A stretch of 64,000 bases of DNA from Candidatus Poseidoniaceae archaeon. GTDB taxonomy: Archaea > Thermoplasmatota > Poseidoniia > Poseidoniales > Poseidoniaceae. The notes beneath the pieces are model-generated. The model ran no database searches and had not been told where the DNA came from. It was given only the letters and a program-made list of their open reading frames with translations. Positions 3,057 to 23,999 of this stretch are shown here, in pieces. Location of the stretch: positions 148,125-212,124 of the forward strand of contig CBFIJH010000002.1 of assembly GCA_965662895.1 (NCBI GenBank), read 5' to 3'. The position numbers were made by a program, and so were the translations under genes. Position 1 is the first letter of the stretch. Every line of letters starts with the position of its first letter.

Positions 3057-4400
3057 TCAACGTCGACGACCCTTTCTCGTCTTTTTTGAGCGCCCTTGTC
3101 GCTCATACGCACGGCTCTGATATGCACGACGGTCTTGATCATCTGTCCAGATTGAATGTTCTGAAACATCATCGGAATCGGGCAAATTGTCGAGCGATTC
3201 TATCGTTAGACGCAATCCTCCTAACTGGTCTTGGAGGGCTCGAACATTGTCGCCACCCCTACCAACCAATGTTGAGATCATATTGCTTGGAGCATAAACC
3301 GTTGCTGAAGCATCACTCGTAAATTGAACACGAACATGCACACCAGCCCATTGCCGTATGGTATGGATGAGTTGTTTTTGAGCGAGTTGTTGAATGGGCT
3401 TTTTTTGCCCCGTCTCTGTAACGGGAACGACAGCAAGTTCTGAGCCAAAAGCGAACATTTCGTGTGTGACATTACCGGATGGGAATTCAACAACTTCGAT
3501 GACGGGTCGTGCCAGTTCTTCTTGCATCCCCGATGGTGGTTTGACAGTCATTCTTAGTTCAAGCACTTGTTGTATCTTTCCGGCTTCAACGTGCAAAACA
3601 GTGTCAAGCACTTGAGAAACCAATCCGAGCTCGACTTTCCCAATCAGCCGCTGAATCGCTTCAAGCGCTGAGTTGGCATGCGTAACACCGAGTAGACCGA
3701 CACCAGCAAGTCGTACATCAGCAAAGATCTCGAAATCCCTTGCTCGGCGTACTTCATCAAAAATAACGAAGTCTGGGCGTACAAGGAAAATGATTTCTGC
3801 GGTCTTCTCTAAATCGCCTTCCAGTGGAGCATACTGTGTAATTCGGTCAGCGAGTTGCAAATCTCTTGGTGCTTCCATGGTTTTGACCATGGCTCCGATA
3901 TCGTCATCGAGATACTCAGCAATGGCTTGCGCCAACGTCGTCTTTCCAGAACCAGGACGACCACAAATGAAGACTCCTCGATGATGATTGGACAATCGTT
4001 CAATGATTTTGGAATCGAGGTTGTAATCACTGAGCGATAGTTTTGCTACAGGTCGAACCACTGTGATTTCTCGAGCATCTGAGAAAGGGGGGCTTGCACA
4101 TGTTATTCTTAGGTCACCAAGTTGCAAGACTTGGCAACCCTTACGATCGATTTCAAGAAAACAATCACTTCGGTGTTGGTTTGCTTCAACGATTGTTTGC
4201 AAAGATTCCTGGAGCGATTCCAACCGTAGGTTATCCCACTCTTCTCCTTCCAATTCGAGCTCAACCAATTCGAGGTTTCCAATCGTTCCTCGCTTGACTC
4301 GAGGAGGACAATCGGCTTTCAGAAAAATTGTGTGGACTTCTGCTTCGAGAAGATCTTCCATTTCAGAGGGGAGGCTTGGGTGTTCACCGTGCTTTGCCAT
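3057..4400 (-). CDS. PINA-like (PilT/VirB11-type) ATPase with C-terminal KH domain, apparently lacking the PIN domain
   Basis: PPFSDAREITVVRPV, Walker A GRPGSGKTT, KTMEAPRDL, RPDFVIFDEVR, GVTHA, KH loop LVGRGGDNV. Start placed at MAKHG (4400), which avoids overlap with the upstream gene. Confidence 0.85.
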   Translation of the reverse strand: MAKHGEHPSLPSEMEDLLEAEVHTIFLKADCPPRVKRGTIGNLELVELELEGEEWDNLRLESLQESLQTIVEANQHRSDCFLEIDRKGCQVLQLGDLRITCASPPFSDAREITVVRPVAKLSLSDYNLDSKIIERLSNHHRGVFICGRPGSGKTTLAQAIAEYLDDDIGAMVKTMEAPRDLQLADRITQYAPLEGDLEKTAEIIFLVRPDFVIFDEVRRARDFEIFADVRLAGVGLLGVTHANSALEAIQRLIGKVELGLVSQVLDTVLHVEAGKIQQVLELRMTVKPPSGMQEELARPVIEVVEFPSGNVTHEMFAFGSELAVVPVTETGQKKPIQQLAQKQLIHTIRQWAGVHVRVQFTSDASATVYAPSNMISTLVGRGGDNVRALQDQLGGLRLTIESLDNLPDSDDVSEHSIWTDDQDRRAYQSRAYERQGRSKKTRKGRRR

Positions 4401-9585: not shown

Positions 9586-10676
9586 GTTTCCAAAGCATGA
9601 ACAATCCGTTCAATTTCAGACTCGATTAAACCGTGATGTACCGGAATCGAGACAAGTTGATTCGAAAGGATTTCGGTGACTGAGAAGTGTTCGTTTGCTT
9701 GAGCATGATCAGCATAAACGGGATGTTGGTGGCAAGGGACAGGATAGATTTGTCGAGCATCTATCCCAAATTTCTCCATGTGTTGGATGAGTGAATGAAT
9801 GTCTTCGGTTTGTATGCAGTATTGATGCCAAGCGTGCTTGGAAAATGGGCGGATTGCAGGCGATTTTAATTTCGGATTTGATTCGAGGATCGCCGTAAAC
9901 CGAGAAGCAATTGAACGTCGTTTCGCTAACCAGCCATCAAGATGTTTGAGTTGTATGCGACCAATGGCTGCAAATACCTCAGACATCCGCATGTTTGTTC
10001 CAACTTCTTGAGATTGGAGCGAACCATCCCGGCCATGGTTCACAATGGCGTTGATCCTCGCTCCAATTTCCGCATGTGCGGAGGTAATCATTCCGCCTTC
10101 TCCTCCAACCGCAACATTTTTTGATGGGAAAAATGAGAAGCATGACACTGTTCCGAGTGAACCAGCAATCCTCTTCTCATCATTCACAAGGATGGACGCA
10201 CCGTGTGCTTGGGCAGCATCCTCAATCACTGCAATACCGTGTTTTTCACAAAGATCGAGAAGTAAGGTATCGTAACATTGTCCAAAGAGATGAACACCAA
10301 TGACTGCTTTTGTTTTAGAGGTCAACCTTCTTTCAACATCTTCAACATCAAGACACCAATACTCTGGTTCAACTTCAGCAAAAATGGGGGTTGCTCCCGT
10401 CATGGAAACCGATGTTGCCGTGGCGATAAAAGTTAGAGAAGGCACAATAACCTCGTCACCAGGCCCTACGTCAAGAAGTCGCAAAGCTGCAATCAACGCA
10501 CCGGATCCACTGTTGCACGGTGAGGCATATTTGACTCCACAATAGTTTGCAAATTCTTCAGAGAAGGCCTTGCCTTGCGGCCCTTTGACCCAACGGCCAG
10601 AATCCAGTGTATTGATTGCGACCTCTCGCATCTCTTCCGTCCACGTTGGGCGAGCAAGTGGAATACGTTCAGGCAT
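9576..10676 (-). CDS. DegT/DnrJ/EryC1/StrS family sugar aminotransferase
   Basis: GPGDEVIVPSLTFIATA, IEDAAQAHGA, SFFPSKN (PLP lysine), GEGGMI. Confidence 0.93.
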   Translation of the reverse strand: MPERIPLARPTWTEEMREVAINTLDSGRWVKGPQGKAFSEEFANYCGVKYASPCNSGSGALIAALRLLDVGPGDEVIVPSLTFIATATSVSMTGATPIFAEVEPEYWCLDVEDVERRLTSKTKAVIGVHLFGQCYDTLLLDLCEKHGIAVIEDAAQAHGASILVNDEKRIAGSLGTVSCFSFFPSKNVAVGGEGGMITSAHAEIGARINAIVNHGRDGSLQSQEVGTNMRMSEVFAAIGRIQLKHLDGWLAKRRSIASRFTAILESNPKLKSPAIRPFSKHAWHQYCIQTEDIHSLIQHMEKFGIDARQIYPVPCHQHPVYADHAQANEHFSVTEILSNQLVSIPVHHGLIESEIERIVHALETYC

Positions 10677-18476: not shown

Positions 18477-19256
18477 TTACTTGCGAAGCCCGCCTCGTGC
18501 CCACTGGGTGTCGACCTCCAGTTCAGGGTGGTAGTGCGACCGTCGCACTGCTTGTCGATGTTGTTGGGCCTCATTTGTCGCTATGTCATCCGGACTGTTC
18601 CGCTTCTTGTGCCAACGCTGTACGAGGAGGCTGACAATGACGCTTGGAATGACAAGAAGTGGGGCGAGTGAAGATTCCAAGTCGAGATATTCCATTGGCA
18701 GGTCGAGAACAATACACACGCCCACATACAGTCCGATCGAGGCAAGCAGCGCTGCTACAATCGGAGGCAGAATATGTCGAAACGACATGCCAACAAAGAA
18801 GGCGATGATCGCCGTGATCCCAGGGAGAAATTCGCCTCGCTCGGGATTGATACCGTAATTCTTCAACAACTGAATTCCATTGGAGATGACGATGAACACG
18901 AATCCTGTGGCAAGCAGACGAATGGACATGGATGTAATCATGACGGCGATGATGGCGAATGCCATTGCAGCAAACAGCTGGAACCGGTCGAGTGAAATGA
19001 CGAGGCCTAGTTCCAGTGCAAAAGAATAGAGCGTACTTGCAGAGAGATATCCAATAGCAGCACCGGCAATGGCTGTAATCAAGCTCAATCTTCGATAGCC
19101 TTGAACGAACAGATAAAGCGACAGAATAATGATTGGAATCGCTGTAACATATCCCCCTTCAACAATCTGCGTGATAACAGTATCACGAATTTCATCGACA
19201 TCAGGGGTATCATCCGCCACGGCGATCGGTCTATCCATAACAAAATAGAATGTCAA
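18477..19256 (-). CDS. Multi-pass membrane protein, unknown function (DUF4203-like)
   Basis: About 7 hydrophobic helices, FVQGYRR motif; true start may be downstream (MDRPI). Confidence 0.6.
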   Translation of the reverse strand: MTFYFVMDRPIAVADDTPDVDEIRDTVITQIVEGGYVTAIPIIILSLYLFVQGYRRLSLITAIAGAAIGYLSASTLYSFALELGLVISLDRFQLFAAMAFAIIAVMITSMSIRLLATGFVFIVISNGIQLLKNYGINPERGEFLPGITAIIAFFVGMSFRHILPPIVAALLASIGLYVGVCIVLDLPMEYLDLESSLAPLLVIPSVIVSLLVQRWHKKRNSPDDIATNEAQQHRQAVRRSHYHPELEVDTQWARGGLRK

Positions 19257-19270
19257 CTTGTTGGATGATG

Positions 19271-19357
19271 TGGTGCAGAGGGCAGGATTCGAACCTGCGA
19301 ACCGTTACGGACTGGGACCTCATCCCAGCGCCTTTGACCAAGCTGGGCGACCCCTGC
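19271..19357 (-). tRNA. tRNA-Leu(GAG), CCA encoded
   Basis: Reverse complement GCAGGGG...CTGGG-AT-GAG-GT-CCCAG, long variable arm, GGTTCGAATCC, CTCTGC-A-CCA. Confidence 0.95.
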
Positions 19358-19440
19358 AGCAATCACAACTGCCACACTCGCGTATATCAAAACCACGACG
19401 CGTTCAAATGACGAGAATTGCGATGTCGGTAATCAATAGG

Positions 19441-19450
19441 TCTCAATAGA
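19441..19450 (+). promoter_or_regulatory. Candidate operator TCTCAATAGA upstream of the metallophosphoesterase-GT operon
   Basis: An identical 10-mer lies upstream of the convergent kinase pair (23037-23046, minus strand); a partial repeat TCAATAG is at 19433. Confidence 0.35.
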
Positions 19451-19516
19451 ACATAGGACTTTCCGAAGTATCTGGCTATGTATCTTGAATGTCTGAGACA
19501 GCACGAGAGGCTATTT

Positions 19517-20365
19517 ATGGAAGCAAACGAGCATTACCGTACAATGTTCCTCTCCGATTGGCATCTTGGCATGAAGGGCATCAAGTCGGCTGAACTTCTT
19601 GCATTCTTAGAAACTCATGACGCTGAGACGATTTATCTGATTGGGGATATCGTCGATCAATGGGTTCTCGGCAGAAAGTGGTCATGGAATTCGGACTGCG
19701 ACAATATCCTGCGCAACCTCTTGGAGAAAGCAGAGCGTGGAACAAAAATCATCTACATACCCGGGAACCACGATGATGGGTTTAGGGCTTGGGCGAATAC
19801 CTCCGTCAATGGAATAAGAATCCAAAAAGACGCAGTTCATACAACAGCGGATGGCCGCAAGCTCTGGATTCTGCATGGTGATGAATTCGATTTGTTCATG
19901 AGACATAGTAGATTTTTGGCAAATCTTGGCCATTCCATTGTTCAGTTGCTCATGAAACTGAACCGTCCCGTGACTTGGTTCCGAAAGAGAGTAGGGCTGA
20001 AACCTTGGTCACTTGCAACAATGGCAAGACGGGCTTTTCAAGGAAGCAGTAAGACCTACCGTAGATTCTCAACAGCGGTTACAGAAGAAGCGATGAAACT
20101 CGGTTACGATGGTGTTGTTTGTGGTCACATCCACAAGGCAGAATTCAAATTGATCAATGGAATTGAGTACTGGAACGATGGTGATTGGGTCGATTCATGT
20201 ACAGCAACCGTTGAGGCAATGGATGGAACGATGCAAATTGTCCATTATCAGCCGGCATCTGAGACCATCAAGGCATTGTGTGAGCGTGCTTCAATCCGAG
20301 ACTCAGAGATAACAAACAAACCCATTCTCCATCTTCCTGAGATTCTGGAACAGGTGGCTTCATGA
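19517..20365 (+). CDS. PlcP-like metallophosphoesterase (family usually annotated UDP-2,3-diacylglucosamine diphosphatase)
   Basis: YRTMFLSDWHLG, IYLIGDIVD, IYIPGNHDD, HTTADGRKLWILHGDEFD, GVVCGHIH, YWNDGDWVDSCTA. Confidence 0.82.
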   Translation: MEANEHYRTMFLSDWHLGMKGIKSAELLAFLETHDAETIYLIGDIVDQWVLGRKWSWNSDCDNILRNLLEKAERGTKIIYIPGNHDDGFRAWANTSVNGIRIQKDAVHTTADGRKLWILHGDEFDLFMRHSRFLANLGHSIVQLLMKLNRPVTWFRKRVGLKPWSLATMARRAFQGSSKTYRRFSTAVTEEAMKLGYDGVVCGHIHKAEFKLINGIEYWNDGDWVDSCTATVEAMDGTMQIVHYQPASETIKALCERASIRDSEITNKPILHLPEILEQVAS

Positions 20366-21501
20366 AAATCGCCTATGCACTTGCTGGAGAGGGACGAGGT
20401 CACGCAGTCAGAGCCATATCGCTTGCAAAAGGTCTCATAGAGCGCGGCCATGAAATTGATTTCTTTACCTGTGGTGATGCCCTCGAATTACTTCGGGAAA
20501 CGTTTGGTGCCAACGCGGTTCATGATCTCGAAACACCGAGATTTGTTATCGTTAGAAATCGAGTATCAATCTTGCGGACAGGAATTGCCTCAATTCGTTT
20601 CTTTGGCAAACAAGGTCGCAGAAAAAGAAAGTTTTCAAAGACATTACGCTCGATGAACATCGAAGCAGTTATTTCCGATTTTGAGCCAACGTTTCCAAGG
20701 GTCGCTCGTCGACTCAAACTTCCTTTGATTTCATTTAACTCTCAACGATTTGCCTTGGATGCAAAATTGGATGAAGTGCTGACATTTCGGCAACGGATGA
20801 AACTCTTTCCGATCAAAACCTTATGCTGGTTTTTTGCCCCAAAGCCACAACTTAGTTTGGTTTCAAAAGGGTTTAACCTGAAACCGAACAAGCCAACTGC
20901 ACATATACTCGGTCCAATGTTGCGGCCAGAATTTTTCCCAGGGGCATGGAGGCCAACAGGCACACATGCGATTGCCTATCTTCGAACAAGTGTGCTCCAA
21001 CACCTCCCAGCTATTGCTGCGCATGCTCAATCGCATGGCCTGTCTCTCAAATTGTACGGACATTACCCTGAAAATGTTCCTGACAACGTCGAGATCCGAC
21101 CTATATCGAACGACGGGTTCATTGAGGATCTTCTGACTGCAGACTGGATGATTCAAACCGCGGGTACACAACTCCTTGGAGAGGCCGGAACAATCTCTAT
21201 CCCATCGATCTGTATCCCCGAACCGGGACAAGTTGAGCAGGAAATCAATGGGATTCTCGCAGAAAAAACGTTGCCTAATGTGAAGGTTCTGCGTCCAAAG
21301 TCAACATCGATTCAGGAGATTGATGCAATGCTTGAGACATGCCGCAAAGCATCGACGACTTCAAACATCGAAAACGGAAAAAAACAGGCCGTTGCAATTG
21401 TTGATGAATTTTTAAACGGTTTAGAACGAGAGACAACCTTGTCTGAACCAAAGCAAGACCTTGATCTCCAGTTAACAAATGAACAACCTTCCTCAAATTG
21501 A
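20362..21501 (+). CDS. Glycosyltransferase, MJ1255/VC2487-like GT-B family
   Basis: MKIAYALAGEGRGHAVR, VISDFEP, TAGTQLLGEA, PEPGQVEQEIN; ATGA overlap with the upstream gene. Confidence 0.82.
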   Translation: MKIAYALAGEGRGHAVRAISLAKGLIERGHEIDFFTCGDALELLRETFGANAVHDLETPRFVIVRNRVSILRTGIASIRFFGKQGRRKRKFSKTLRSMNIEAVISDFEPTFPRVARRLKLPLISFNSQRFALDAKLDEVLTFRQRMKLFPIKTLCWFFAPKPQLSLVSKGFNLKPNKPTAHILGPMLRPEFFPGAWRPTGTHAIAYLRTSVLQHLPAIAAHAQSHGLSLKLYGHYPENVPDNVEIRPISNDGFIEDLLTADWMIQTAGTQLLGEAGTISIPSICIPEPGQVEQEINGILAEKTLPNVKVLRPKSTSIQEIDAMLETCRKASTTSNIENGKKQAVAIVDEFLNGLERETTLSEPKQDLDLQLTNEQPSSN

Positions 21502-21563
21502 TGAGGTTTAATCATTCAACGAGATTCTGTCAATTGTTTGCCTATTGGTTCCAGGCGTCGAAA

Positions 21564-22235
21564 TTAATCGCGAATGGTTTGGAGCATATCCGAAACGTAT
21601 GGTTTGACACTGGCCCATACCTCGCTGTGGACCTCGCCGACCGAACCTCGAGTGTGAACTACGGGGTACCCCTCAAGTTCTGCTCTTTTCTCGAAGGCCT
21701 TTCTGAGGAGCTTCTGATACGCCAAAAATGAGTGAGTGATGGAGGGAGACAATCCCATGTCAGCCCCAGCTTCGTAATGGTTGAGTTTTGTCAGCGATTC
21801 GTTGTACATCATACGGTTGAGCAGGCGGCGTCCGCCCGCAAGAAGTGTCACGGTCACATCCGCCTCTGGCATGTCTCGGTACAATCCCTGAATCCATTCC
21901 GCATCGCCGCCTCGGACGGTCTCCCGAATCAACGGCGTTGTGGTGTAACGATCGGCGATGACAACAAAACCGGCCTCCATGAGCGGCTGGACCTCGTGAA
22001 TGTACTGGTCGTGCAAATCGGTCGCATAGAGAAGGGCACGAGTTCGCCAGTTCAATTGATGAAGATCTGAATGTGAACGCTTGATGAGGTCTCCGAGAAG
22101 TTCCGAACGGGCAAGCCCAACAACCACCACGGCGACGCCGTGGGCTTGTAGCCGTTCACTCAGTAACCGCACGTGCATTGAACGGCCAACATTATCCGGC
22201 CCTTCGATGACAATGAGTTTCCCTCCTGTCGTCAT
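21564..22235 (-). CDS. Thymidylate-kinase-like protein with degenerate P-loop (putative second PPK3-like subunit)
   Basis: LIVIEGPDNVGRSM (Lys to Arg), LLYATD, VIADRY, YEAGADM; 4-nt overlap with the upstream paralog. Confidence 0.75.
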   Translation of the reverse strand: MTTGGKLIVIEGPDNVGRSMHVRLLSERLQAHGVAVVVVGLARSELLGDLIKRSHSDLHQLNWRTRALLYATDLHDQYIHEVQPLMEAGFVVIADRYTTTPLIRETVRGGDAEWIQGLYRDMPEADVTVTLLAGGRRLLNRMMYNESLTKLNHYEAGADMGLSPSITHSFLAYQKLLRKAFEKRAELEGYPVVHTRGSVGEVHSEVWASVKPYVSDMLQTIRD

Positions 22236-22987
22236 GCGTCATCCTCCAGAGCACTCCAGTCAAACGATGATGTGCGAATCATCTCGGCTACCCGGTCGTT
22301 TTCGTCAATGGGTTGAATGTTGTCGAGATCCACGTGCTCTGAAATCATTGCACGCACGCGAGATTGGACCTCTGCAACGGTCCCCAAGGCGTCTACTCGG
22401 ACAATACGACCATCTCGAACCAGAGCGTCGTAGATTTCCTTGATTTTACCCTGAAGTATCTTGTAGGATTCAAACGGGTCGAATGTCCATCCCATGTCCA
22501 GGCCAGCTTCGTAATACTTCAGTGTCGGCCGGCCTTTGATAATCCGGTCGTATCCAATTTCAGGAGGGATATCAAAGTACAGGGTTATGTCTGGTTCTCT
22601 AGCAAACGAATAGTTCGATTCGATGGTATCTCGTTTGACACCTCGGGCACCATCTCTCGCCATTGCCGTGAATTTGTATCGGTCGCAGATTACGATGCCA
22701 CCAACCTCCAGCATCGGCTCAATTTGCTTGCTCCAGCGGTCTGCAAAGTCTGCAGCATGGATGAGGTGGAAGGTTTGTGGCTTGAGTCGTTTTGTGTTCT
22801 TGCCGGCCTTCGTGGCTTCTGCAACAACCGGACTTGAGTTCCATTCAGTGTGGTGTACCGGCAGTCCCAGTGCACGAATCCAGTTGAACAAAAGCATAGC
22901 CTGAGTTGATTTACCGCTTCCATCCATGCCTTCGACAGCAATCAATAGACCCCGTTCAAGTGGTAATTTTTCACGTACTTCGGACAA
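22232..22987 (-). CDS. Thymidylate-kinase-like protein with canonical P-loop (putative PPK3-like subunit)
   Basis: LIAVEGMDGSGKSTQ, TEWNSS, LIHAADFADR, CDRY, YYEAGLD. In-frame TTG start at 22987 follows SD-like GGGTGTGAT; the ORF track start is 23059. Confidence 0.8.
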   Translation of the reverse strand: MSEVREKLPLERGLLIAVEGMDGSGKSTQAMLLFNWIRALGLPVHHTEWNSSPVVAEATKAGKNTKRLKPQTFHLIHAADFADRWSKQIEPMLEVGGIVICDRYKFTAMARDGARGVKRDTIESNYSFAREPDITLYFDIPPEIGYDRIIKGRPTLKYYEAGLDMGWTFDPFESYKILQGKIKEIYDALVRDGRIVRVDALGTVAEVQSRVRAMISEHVDLDNIQPIDENDRVAEMIRTSSFDWSALEDDA

Positions 22988-23036
22988 TGCATCACACCCG
23001 TTCGATTGTTTGTAGAACCTTCCGAATTTATTACCA

Positions 23037-23046
23037 TCTATTGAGA
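23037..23046 (-). promoter_or_regulatory. Candidate operator TCTCAATAGA upstream of the kinase pair
   Basis: Plus strand TCTATTGAGA is the reverse complement of the 19441 motif and lies just downstream of a TTATAATA TATA-like box. Confidence 0.35.
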
Positions 23047-23089
23047 TATTATAATCCAAGTTTTTTTGTAATCTCAGTGTATGAATTCT

Positions 23090-23902
23090 TCAATAAAAGA
23101 TGGAACAACAGGTGATTGAGCCATCAGCTTCTCGAATCTGATCCATCTTGAGAACAATCGGTTCCAAACCTTTCTGCTTGAGTGCCTTTAGAACCGTTGG
23201 ATAGCCTTCTGCAACGAGGACTTTCCCGTTTTCAAAACCAATCGTGTTGCACCCGTAGACTTCTTCTTCAGGCATCAGCAGGACTTCGCAACCTTCTGGG
23301 AGTTCACCGAAATCCTCCGCAGTAAGGTAACCCTCTGCGGTGAGAATAATGTTGTCGGTTGGTGTTGAGGAAATGGAGGTGAGATGGAGGGCTTTCTCTA
23401 TTGGAATGTCGACAATACGCAACTCATGACCAAGGTGTGTCAGAAGGTTGCGTAGTGTTTCAATTCCTGCTTCATTTGTTCGCTCTGAGCGACCAACGAA
23501 GAAGATGTCACCGAGTCGTAGAATGTCGCCACCATCCATTCGAGCATCGCCAAACATACCACAGACTTGGAACCCGTTGAGTTGTCGTGAAAGGAAATCT
23601 GCGATTGGCGGTTGTTCTCCAACACGTGACGGGTGGCCAGGTACTGGTAGGAGCACGTGACCGTCGATAACGATGGCTTGATCTTCAACAAAAATACAGT
23701 CAGGGTGGTTGTTGTCTGCAGGAAGGATGGTCACCTCAAGGCCGATGTCCAAAAGCGCTTGGACATAGGCTGCATGTTGTGTTTTTGCCAATGCAATATC
23801 GGTTGGTCCAGAACCGAAATAGTTGGCTATTGCATCGGAGAAAGAGCGAGGAACGGCCCTCATGAGGACACGTTGCTTCTGGTCCGTGCGGACAGTAGCC
23901 AT
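23090..23902 (-). CDS. Dimethylarginine dimethylaminohydrolase / amidinotransferase family
   Basis: QHAAYVQAL, PDCIFVED, HPSRVGE, MDGGDIL, VGRSERTNEAG, LHLTS, DGSITCCS (catalytic Cys). Confidence 0.88.
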   Translation of the reverse strand: MATVRTDQKQRVLMRAVPRSFSDAIANYFGSGPTDIALAKTQHAAYVQALLDIGLEVTILPADNNHPDCIFVEDQAIVIDGHVLLPVPGHPSRVGEQPPIADFLSRQLNGFQVCGMFGDARMDGGDILRLGDIFFVGRSERTNEAGIETLRNLLTHLGHELRIVDIPIEKALHLTSISSTPTDNIILTAEGYLTAEDFGELPEGCEVLLMPEEEVYGCNTIGFENGKVLVAEGYPTVLKALKQKGLEPIVLKMDQIREADGSITCCSIFY

Positions 23903-23999
23903 GATTGACCGGCCAATCATCGTCATTTAATCCTTGGTGAGTGATTGAAACGTGCCAAAGACCATTGAATTGAAACATAAGTTGCGAGTGGGGTTTAGT

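Follow-up and report, generated by a model that had tools for sequence, protein, structure and literature searches.

Do two operons that face each other in the genome of an uncultured marine archaeon share a regulatory sequence, and is that sequence an archaeal counterpart of the bacterial Pho box? The question was raised by a 64-kb window (the whole stretch of DNA analysed, 64,000 nucleotides) from a Poseidoniaceae (Marine Group II) archaeon, in which the 10-mer TCTCAATAGA occurred at 19441-19450 on the plus strand and, as its reverse complement, at 23037-23046 (minus strand). Relative to the genes that follow, both copies were oriented alike, and each stood upstream of one operon: copy 1 before a PlcP-like metallophosphoesterase gene and a glycosyltransferase gene, and copy 2 before a pair of kinase genes, here called K1 and K2. 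An initial annotation of this DNA had read the four genes as a phosphorus-related module and the 10-mer as a possible Pho-box analogue. In the present study, we compared the locus with its relatives. The results indicated that the four genes form one accessory cassette of ~3.7 kb (window ~19391-23078), which lies between the promoter of a tRNA-Leu(GAG) gene and the stop codon of a DDAH-like gene. They further suggested, with a probability of roughly 0.62, that both 10-mers are core promoter elements (TATA box plus immediate flanks) of the two inward-facing promoters of this cassette.

Placement and Conservation of the Shared Element

Reading of the sequence confirmed the placement and orientation of the 10-mer as the initial annotation had described them, together with two neighbouring words. 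The upstream box TCAATAG (19433-19439, +) was an exact 7-nt copy of positions 19443-19449 in a 10-bp phase, and it read CAATAG or CTATAG in the orthologues. At the second site, TTATAATA (23047-23054, minus-strand reading) abutted the 10-mer as a second TATA-like box, which was TTAAATA in relatives.

The sharing of the bare 10-mer is weak statistically and is not beyond chance by itself. Within the window, TCTCAATAGA had two exact matches and five matches with at most one mismatch, compared with 4.49 expected, and 47 of 100 shuffles reached five. The genome (1.86 Mb, 48% G+C) contained four exact copies, compared with ~3.6 expected for a random 10-mer, and the pattern read backwards as a control gave one. 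Some exact 10-mer in the same orientation was common to 2272 of 263,175 pairs of upstream regions in this genome (0.86%), and at least four other exact 10-nt inverted pairs were listed within the same 3.8 kb. The degenerate pattern YCTMWATAGR matched the genome 18 times, with eight matches in non-coding DNA, and only four were promoter-like: the two cassette sites, the tRNA-Glu gene, and a gene on contig C7. What raises the 10-mer above chance is its position, together with its conservation in orthologous promoters.

The initial annotation had suggested that orthologous upstream regions be compared, and there the core of the motif was found to be conserved at both operon promoters. The core CT[C/A][A/T]ATAG stood in the same place in both promoters of every relative examined, with diverged flanks. 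It was the one invariant A/T-rich element of both intergenic regions (seven genomes at site 1 and seven at site 2, representing two sequence clades), and most of the surrounding intergenic DNA was unalignable between the clades. At site 1, the 10-mer was TCTCAATAGA in G000, ACTCAATAGA in G006 and G007, CCTCAATAGA in G049, TCTATATAGG in G020, TCTATATAGT in G021, and CCTATATAGG in G023. At site 2, the exact TCTCAATAGA was kept in G000, G009, G017, and G006 despite a diverged downstream flank, and the 10-mer was CCTCTATAGA in G020 and G021 and TCTCTATAGT in G023. The two promoters of a further relative, the metagenome-assembled genome (MAG) L086, carried CCTCTATAGG and TCTCTATACC, i.e., CTCTATA(G/C), in a wholly different genomic context. 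At both sites, the motif was non-coding, lay upstream of the gene, and was oriented toward it. Copy 2 is non-coding because the real start codon of K1 is the TTG at 22987; a mechanical open reading frame (ORF) from TTG 23059, which swallowed this copy, was rejected as an over-extension according to the starts of the orthologues.

The outer letters of the 10-mer were not conserved. Among the orthologues, position 1 was T, A, or C and position 10 was A, G, or T; the TCT-N4-AGA dyad that the initial annotation had pointed out was thus not maintained. Since the first and last letters vary, neither the dyad nor the tenth matching base is selected. A longer composite, motif-N10-TTCSSGAAG, was present at both sites in this genome; it was not conserved in the orthologues and was dropped as chance.

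Similarity to Core Promoters of the Lineage

Two core promoters came closest to the motif in the genome, namely that of tRNA-Glu(CTC) and that of an unannotated contig C7 gene. The motif matched nine of the ten bases of the tRNA-Glu core promoter TCTAAATAGA (promoter TTTCTAAATAGA), in which 25 nt separate the G of ATAG from the mature 5' end of the tRNA. Throughout the genus, this box was TTTCTAAATA(G/C)A at 21 of 21 loci, with G in 18 and C in three. The same TCTAAATAGA was also located 19 nt before the ATG of the contig C7 gene. In the cassette, copy 1 is accordingly proposed as the TATA box of the PlcP-glycosyltransferase operon, and copy 2 as that of the K1-K2 operon. Downstream of copy 1, the sequence CTAT (19476-19479, +), a candidate transcription start region, was invariant in 7/7 genomes. 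It lay 27 nt after the G of ATAG, the 25-nt spacing from the end of the box to CTAT was the same in L086, and a conserved GAGG Shine-Dalgarno sequence followed between CTAT and the start codon.

Hexamers of the type xATAG were enriched 3- to 9-fold in 725 upstream regions of the genome (AAATAG, 28 vs. 5.2 expected; TATAGA, 15 vs. 2.0; ATATAG, 12 vs. 1.4; CAATAG, 18 vs. 5.9). A position weight matrix (PWM) was obtained by seeded refinement on 35 tRNA upstream regions, with a seed chosen by the analyst. The matrix read T[T/C/G]A[A/T]A[T/A]A[C/G], and the box ended 19-25 nt before the tRNA in 23 of the 35 regions. It provides a first sketch of the core promoter in an uncultured lineage, at ~19-25 nt before tRNA 5' ends.

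A scan for the motif at phosphate genes was also performed. No match with two or fewer mismatches was found upstream of pstS, phoU, pstC, or a second pst-like locus. Because phosphate genes gave no matches and the nearest relatives were the tRNA-Glu and contig C7 promoters, we read the motif as a TATA variant and not as a Pho-box analogue, and the latter proposal of the initial annotation is not supported.

Position, orientation, conservation, unity of the cassette, and likeness to a tRNA promoter were observed here; protein binding, start sites, and any regulation belong to the following proposed model. Each box would be bound by TBP/TFB, and transcription would begin some 20-27 nt further on, for the first operon near the conserved CTAT (19476-19479) and for the second near 23013. 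The 20 sequencing runs listed as containing the locus, from eight studies, were DNA or unclassified, with no RNA run among them. The products would be Shine-Dalgarno-led mRNAs with 5' leaders of ~25-40 nt. A C at a strongly-A position, combined with a TATA-like partner one helical turn upstream, would be expected of weak, factor-dependent promoters.

Alternative Explanations for the Motif

Several observations weigh against the identification of the motif as a core promoter box. The 8-mer CTCAATAG obtained a PWM score of 2.57, within the top 2.7% of genome positions and below the lower quartile of the tRNA boxes (4.68), because the motif has C where the tRNA consensus has 82% A. Higher scores were obtained by TCAAATGA at 19404 (3.81) and TCATACAC at 23084 (7.32), and in both cases the end of the 8-mer is 29-30 nt before a motif copy; should these serve as the actual TATA boxes, the start site would precede the motif by a short distance, and the motif would occupy an operator-like (repressor-site) position. 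When the tRNA upstream regions were searched without a seed, the positions obtained were scattered and did not define a TATA box, and since this search did not converge, the PWM depends on the chosen seed. The CT at motif positions 2-3 was invariant at the cassette promoters, but it was present at only 5 of 94 WATAG sites (about chance), which hints at a constraint beyond that of a generic TATA box. Position 5 differed between the clades in concert at the two promoters, from A to T (CTCAATAG/CTCAATAG vs. CTATATAG/CTCTATAG), and a second TATA-like box lay ~10 bp (about one helical turn) upstream at both promoters. The genome contained just five copies of the tandem WATAG-N5-WATAG, all of them non-coding, and two of these sites were the pstS and PlcP promoters; the pstS promoter also carried a conserved array of ~10-bp-phased xTAG units. 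Apart from the unseeded search, these points would agree with an operator made up of the motif and its 10-bp-phased partner, through which a dedicated transcription factor would co-regulate both operons, perhaps in response to phosphate, and which would either overlap the TATA box or lie just downstream of the start site. The position of the cassette after pstCAB in L086 would also agree with such an operator. We nevertheless consider it unlikely, as the motif is missing from the phosphate promoters scanned above, its closest relatives belong to a tRNA and an unannotated gene, and no regulator gene travels with the cassette. On the tree, the covariation at position 5 counts as just one event, and each of the two states is an ordinary TATA word. 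As for the upstream TATA-like candidates, TCAAATGA lies inside a segment (19391-19412) kept in 7/7 carriers, the site 2 candidate TCATACAC is not conserved across clades, and neither has a counterpart in L086. The other WATAG-N5-WATAG sites belonged to a TPR-protein gene, to purA, and to a contig C22 site without a downstream gene, and a tandem-box site with a period of 11 was found at a cyclophilin gene.

A coincidence between unrelated A/T-rich stretches, with no function, would be in line with the genome-wide counts, which were at expectation. With 0.86% of pairs sharing a 10-mer, a dozen or so such pairs are expected in a 64-kb window with several dozen upstream regions, and the tenth identical base is luck, as position 1 is T, A, or C in the orthologues. 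The caution of the initial annotation that the match could be chance therefore stands for the counts, but not for the core: in L086 and in every carrier examined, 8-9 nt did not vary at either site, amid diverged DNA. This invariance largely refutes a coincidence, which we regard as very unlikely. Equally doubtful, and in our view slightly more so, is a reading in which a mobile element has the two copies as its recombination sites or terminal inverted repeats. The block is inserted next to a tRNA gene and is patchily distributed (at least seven changes on a 30-genome tree and 20 genomes with an empty site), the motifs lie ~50 and ~35 nt inside its two ends, the L086 cassette occupies another context near a duplicated tRNA 3' fragment, and one genome (G049) has the cassette beside a decayed tRNA-Leu with an empty site on another contig. 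However, the repeats are not terminal, the flanking ends have no further similarity, and no transposase, integrase, or other mobility gene was found in or beside the block. The inverted match spans only 9-10 nt, and such pairs are expected by chance at this scale (the at least four others mentioned above lie in the same 3.8 kb). Each copy also stands at a promoter-like distance from a start codon, and homologous recombination through the conserved flanks explains the patchiness equally well. That the cassette has persisted solely between such flanks also speaks against a mobile element.

The 21-mer CAATAGGTCTCAATAGAACAT of the PlcP promoter (window 19436-19456) recurred with 20 of 21 bases at contig C9:10988-11008 (-), where a TFB gene diverges from purA. 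Elsewhere in the genome, the best match to it had four mismatches. It was rejected as a regulon element: the purA copy was not conserved in 29 other genomes of the genus, cassette carriers included, and it is therefore specific to this genome. A short conversion patch and convergence are both possibilities for this likeness.

Borders and Distribution of the Cassette

To the left, the cassette is bordered by the tRNA-Leu(GAG) gene (19271-19357, -; ARAGORN, Rfam), which is present with or without the cassette. The TATA box of this tRNA, TTGATATAC (GTATATCAA on the plus strand), is located at 19381-19390 (-), 24 nt before the tRNA 5' end, and it was the last stretch common to occupied and empty sites. 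The left-end segment CCACGACG..TCAAATGAC (19391-19412, +; PWM score 3.81) follows directly. It was kept in 7/7 carriers and in the remnant in G001 described below, and it was absent from empty sites; it could be an alternative TATA box or TFB-recognition element (BRE), or could act on the promoter of the adjacent tRNA. To the right, sequence comparison placed the junction at ~23078, just after the stop of the DDAH/amidinotransferase-like gene (23090-23926, -), which lies outside the cassette. Within 19000-23400, Rfam recognized the tRNA only. Beside the tRNA, a 259-aa ORF (18477-19256, -) had no Pfam or NCBIfam match and was 73-92% identical throughout the genus.

A search of the genus with the tRNA-Leu region, covering 37 genomes, yielded 30 loci. 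The tRNA promoter was followed by PlcP in six genomes (G000, G006, G007, G020, G021, and G023), and 20 genomes had an empty site in which the tRNA promoter led directly to the 3' end of the DDAH-like gene. Of the remaining loci, one was a contig ending at the tRNA and three were another tRNA-Leu. In G001, ~60 nt from the cassette's left end persisted in the empty site, which therefore represents a secondary deletion. Orthologues of K1 and K2 were found in G006, G009, G017, G020, G021, G023, and G049, and the K1-K2 pair was present in all cassette carriers; the contigs of G009 and G017 end inside the block. All four genes occurred together in 6/6 checkable genomes of the genus (G000, G006, G020, G021, G023, and contig C142 of G049) and in L086. 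These results demonstrated that the four genes form a unit, as the initial annotation had supposed, which is gained or lost as a single insertion. On a purA+tfb tree of 30 genomes, the eight carriers present required at least seven state changes, and the cassette is often exchanged or lost.

Two carriers showed unusual surroundings. In G049 (L073, G049:C142, ~3518-3600), the cassette stands beside a decayed copy of tRNA-Leu(GAG), with 77% identity and the promoter kept, which was unrecognised by ARAGORN; contig C11 of G049 contains an intact tRNA-Leu with an empty site. This double state may mean that flanking DNA was carried along to a second insertion locus, or that the bin is mixed. In L086, K1 is preceded by a tRNA-Leu(GAG) gene and a direct repeat of the tRNA 3' end (~22 nt), which lies ~70 nt after the gene (~9950-10110, minus-strand reading). 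The repeat looks like an integration scar at the tRNA.

Gene Content of the Cassette

The first gene (19517-20365, +) encodes a bacterial-type, PlcP-like Mn-type metallophosphoesterase according to Pfam and NCBIfam, with a match to PF00149 (calcineurin-like) at E 3.5e-11. Its start at ATG 19517 was fixed by the orthologues, in five of which no more than 15-33 nt of open frame precede the homologous start. Relatives of PlcP were judged on the best 80 genome loci. Of these, 79 were bacterial, nearly all from Proteobacteria (Sphingomonadales, Burkholderiales, Rhizobium, and others, with Sphingomonas and Burkholderia among the genera), at 40-49% identity; the best named relative was the 'Candidatus Poseidoniaceae archaeon' MAG L086, at 76% identity. 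Judging from family models and genome relatives, the protein is a calcineurin-like phosphoesterase whose nearest group is the proteobacterial PlcP/LpxH-like one. Within 6 kb of the 79 bacterial loci, no homologue of the cassette's glycosyltransferase or of either kinase was found.

The second gene (20362-21501, +; 379 aa) overlaps the PlcP stop by 4 nt and encodes a glycosyltransferase of the Glyco_trans_1_3, MJ1255-like type. It matched Glyco_trans_1_3 at E 5.9e-41, the NCBIfam MJ1255-like model below its cut-off, and Glyco_transf_4 with 22.7 bits, below the cut-off of 28.5. The pair of PlcP and glycosyltransferase was retained in two Poseidoniales genomes of other families at ~41% identity, and the pair thus extends across three families. 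The reading of the first operon as PlcP-like/glycosyltransferase in the initial annotation agrees with these data, in that the PlcP part is 40-49% identical to the proteobacterial family and a glycosyltransferase follows it.

On the opposite strand, K1 (22232-22987, -) encodes an archaeal-type thymidylate kinase and K2 (21564-22235, -) a paralogue from the same family. Both proteins matched PF02223 (Thymidylate_kin), and the best solved relative of both was the archaeal thymidylate kinase 2plr (K1, E 2e-52). K1 scored 91.4 bits and passed the cut-off of 83.25 of the NCBIfam dTMP kinase model TIGR00041; K2 remained below it, with 59.9 bits. The start of K1, TTG 22987, is ATG at the same codon in G023, and a Shine-Dalgarno-like run precedes the start in all orthologues. 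In K2, the sequence GPDNVGRS replaces the P-loop GxxGxGK(S/T), and K2 is possibly a partner of K1 with altered catalysis. The initial annotation had considered a polyphosphate role plausible for the pair, but a reading as polyphosphate kinases is wrong: neither K1 nor K2 matched the PPK2 model even at E up to 10, and the only match was Thymidylate_kin. Contig C11:56346-57701 (-) of this genome encodes a protein of 451 aa whose N-terminal domain is of the thymidylate-kinase type; the C-terminal part of ~270 aa had no Pfam match, and homologues were matched in 34 of 36 other genomes of the genus. Since this genus-wide thymidylate-kinase homologue is encoded elsewhere, K1 and K2 are extra copies.

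Relation to Phosphate Genes

In L086, the same four genes and a small ParB_N-like ORF stand directly after orthologues of pstC-pstA-pstB. Over the conserved parts, these were 61-73% identical to the genes of this genome; for the N-terminal part of pstA, the identity was 45%. The first promoter box of the L086 cassette begins 12 nt after the pstB stop, and the second follows the tRNA. In this genome, a three-domain pstS, pstC, pstA, and pstB, with divergent phoU-like genes, are located ~120 kb from the cassette. The pstS gene (contig C2:38489-41716) contains three tandem phosphate-binding domains (PBP_like_2) in one open frame of 1076 aa, and pstA and pstB are unusually long (frames of 1276 aa and ~390 aa). 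Upstream of pstS, at contig C2:38420-38480, about five ~10-bp-phased units ending in TAG were kept in seven genomes; in relatives, the units were GTATATAGTT GTATATAGAT ATATTTAGGG GAATGTAGGT TCCGTAGGCC. This array is a candidate binding array for an archaeal phosphate regulator.

The pst locus is itself accessory: its DNA was found in 7 of 36 other genomes of the genus, one of them a weak partial match, and pstB passed the family cut-off in 14 of 37 genomes. A restriction of the phosphate-binding subunit of an ATP-binding cassette (ABC) transporter to some MGII subclades is reported by Tully (2019; PMC6336850). In the present data, pstB was present in 7 of 9 cassette carriers compared with 7 of 28 non-carriers, counts in which the absences are blurred by MAG incompleteness (57-94%). 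An independent-pairs test of cassette and pstB on the purA+tfb tree was not significant (seven pairs, median p 0.375); about four pairs pointed in the same direction, one in the opposite direction, and two showed no difference.

A phosphorus link of the cassette is thus plausible from gene identity and one adjacency to pstCAB, and not from statistics or expression. The phosphorus-related module of the initial annotation finds contextual support in the PlcP family and in the pstCAB adjacency in L086, but not in the kinase pair, which is unrelated to polyphosphate. A more specific proposal, which we consider rather improbable, is that the cassette is a laterally exchanged phosphorus-stress module composed of a bacterial PlcP, an archaeal-type glycosyltransferase, and an extra thymidylate-kinase pair, and that a putative archaeal phosphate regulator would control the cassette and pstS promoters through 10-bp-phased (C/T)(A/T)ATAG boxes. 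If this were true, the glycosyltransferase and PlcP would replace phospholipid head groups by sugars, the phased boxes would function as a genuine counterpart of the Pho box, and the sub-consensus C would make transcription activator-dependent.

Implications

The motif itself is most likely an ordinary regulatory signal, an archaeal core promoter box. Since it most likely marks two core promoters, the 10-mer is unfit as a search pattern for a "Pho box". The cassette is the more useful object for further study: as a discrete, laterally exchanged block whose ends are defined and whose empty-site allele is present in most congeners, it would serve as a clean presence/absence marker to be set against phosphate in ocean metagenomes. 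The occurrence of a bacterial-type PlcP with a glycosyltransferase across Poseidoniales families, attached once to pstCAB, gives concrete, testable form to the idea that an archaeon remodels its lipids to spare phosphorus, which bears on the membrane lipid content of Marine Group II. In the library of papers searched, none was found that links PlcP or phospholipase to Marine Group II or Poseidoniales.

Comparison with Known Systems

Flexible phosphorus-acquisition islands are known from marine picoplankton (Prochlorococcus and SAR11). The cassette resembles them in being small, accessory, and patchy within the genus, in occupying a tRNA-flanked hot spot, and in its tendency to co-occur with an accessory pst locus. 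It differs from them in that the association with pst was not significant once relatedness was allowed for. Unlike a transposon or integrative element, the cassette has its motifs ~50 and ~35 nt inside the ends and carries no mobility gene.

The bacterial PlcP works with the GT4 enzyme Agt/GTcp, as described in PMC4796936 and PMC8231724. Like the marine bacterial PlcP-Agt operon, the cassette has a PlcP-family Mn-type metallophosphoesterase followed by a GT-B-type glycosyltransferase, and it lies beside pstCAB in one lineage. Unlike that operon, the cassette has an archaeal host and a glycosyltransferase of the Glyco_trans_1_3/MJ1255-like type instead of a GT4 Agt/GTcp. Because the glycosyltransferase comes from another family, the cassette pair is an analogue, and not a copy, of the PlcP-Agt operon.

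The bacterial Pho box consists of PhoB-binding direct repeats upstream of Pho-regulon genes, including marine plcP clusters, according to Sebastian et al. (2015; PMC4796936). The cassette is comparable in that a short repeat, about one helical turn apart, precedes the PlcP-glycosyltransferase operon, and the pstS promoter also has phased repeats. It differs in its archaeal host, in the absence of the element from pstS, phoU, and pstC, and in that its nearest relatives are constitutive-type promoters. The sequence of the motif is presumably also unrelated to the Pho-box consensus.

Finally, the cassette element was compared with archaeal BRE/TATA promoters, represented by the tRNA-Glu promoter of this lineage. 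It departs from them by the C at a strongly-A position and by the second TATA-like box 10 bp upstream. It shares with them an A/T-rich, non-coding box of 8-10 nt that faces the gene, is conserved, and keeps a tRNA-like spacing to the downstream landmarks.

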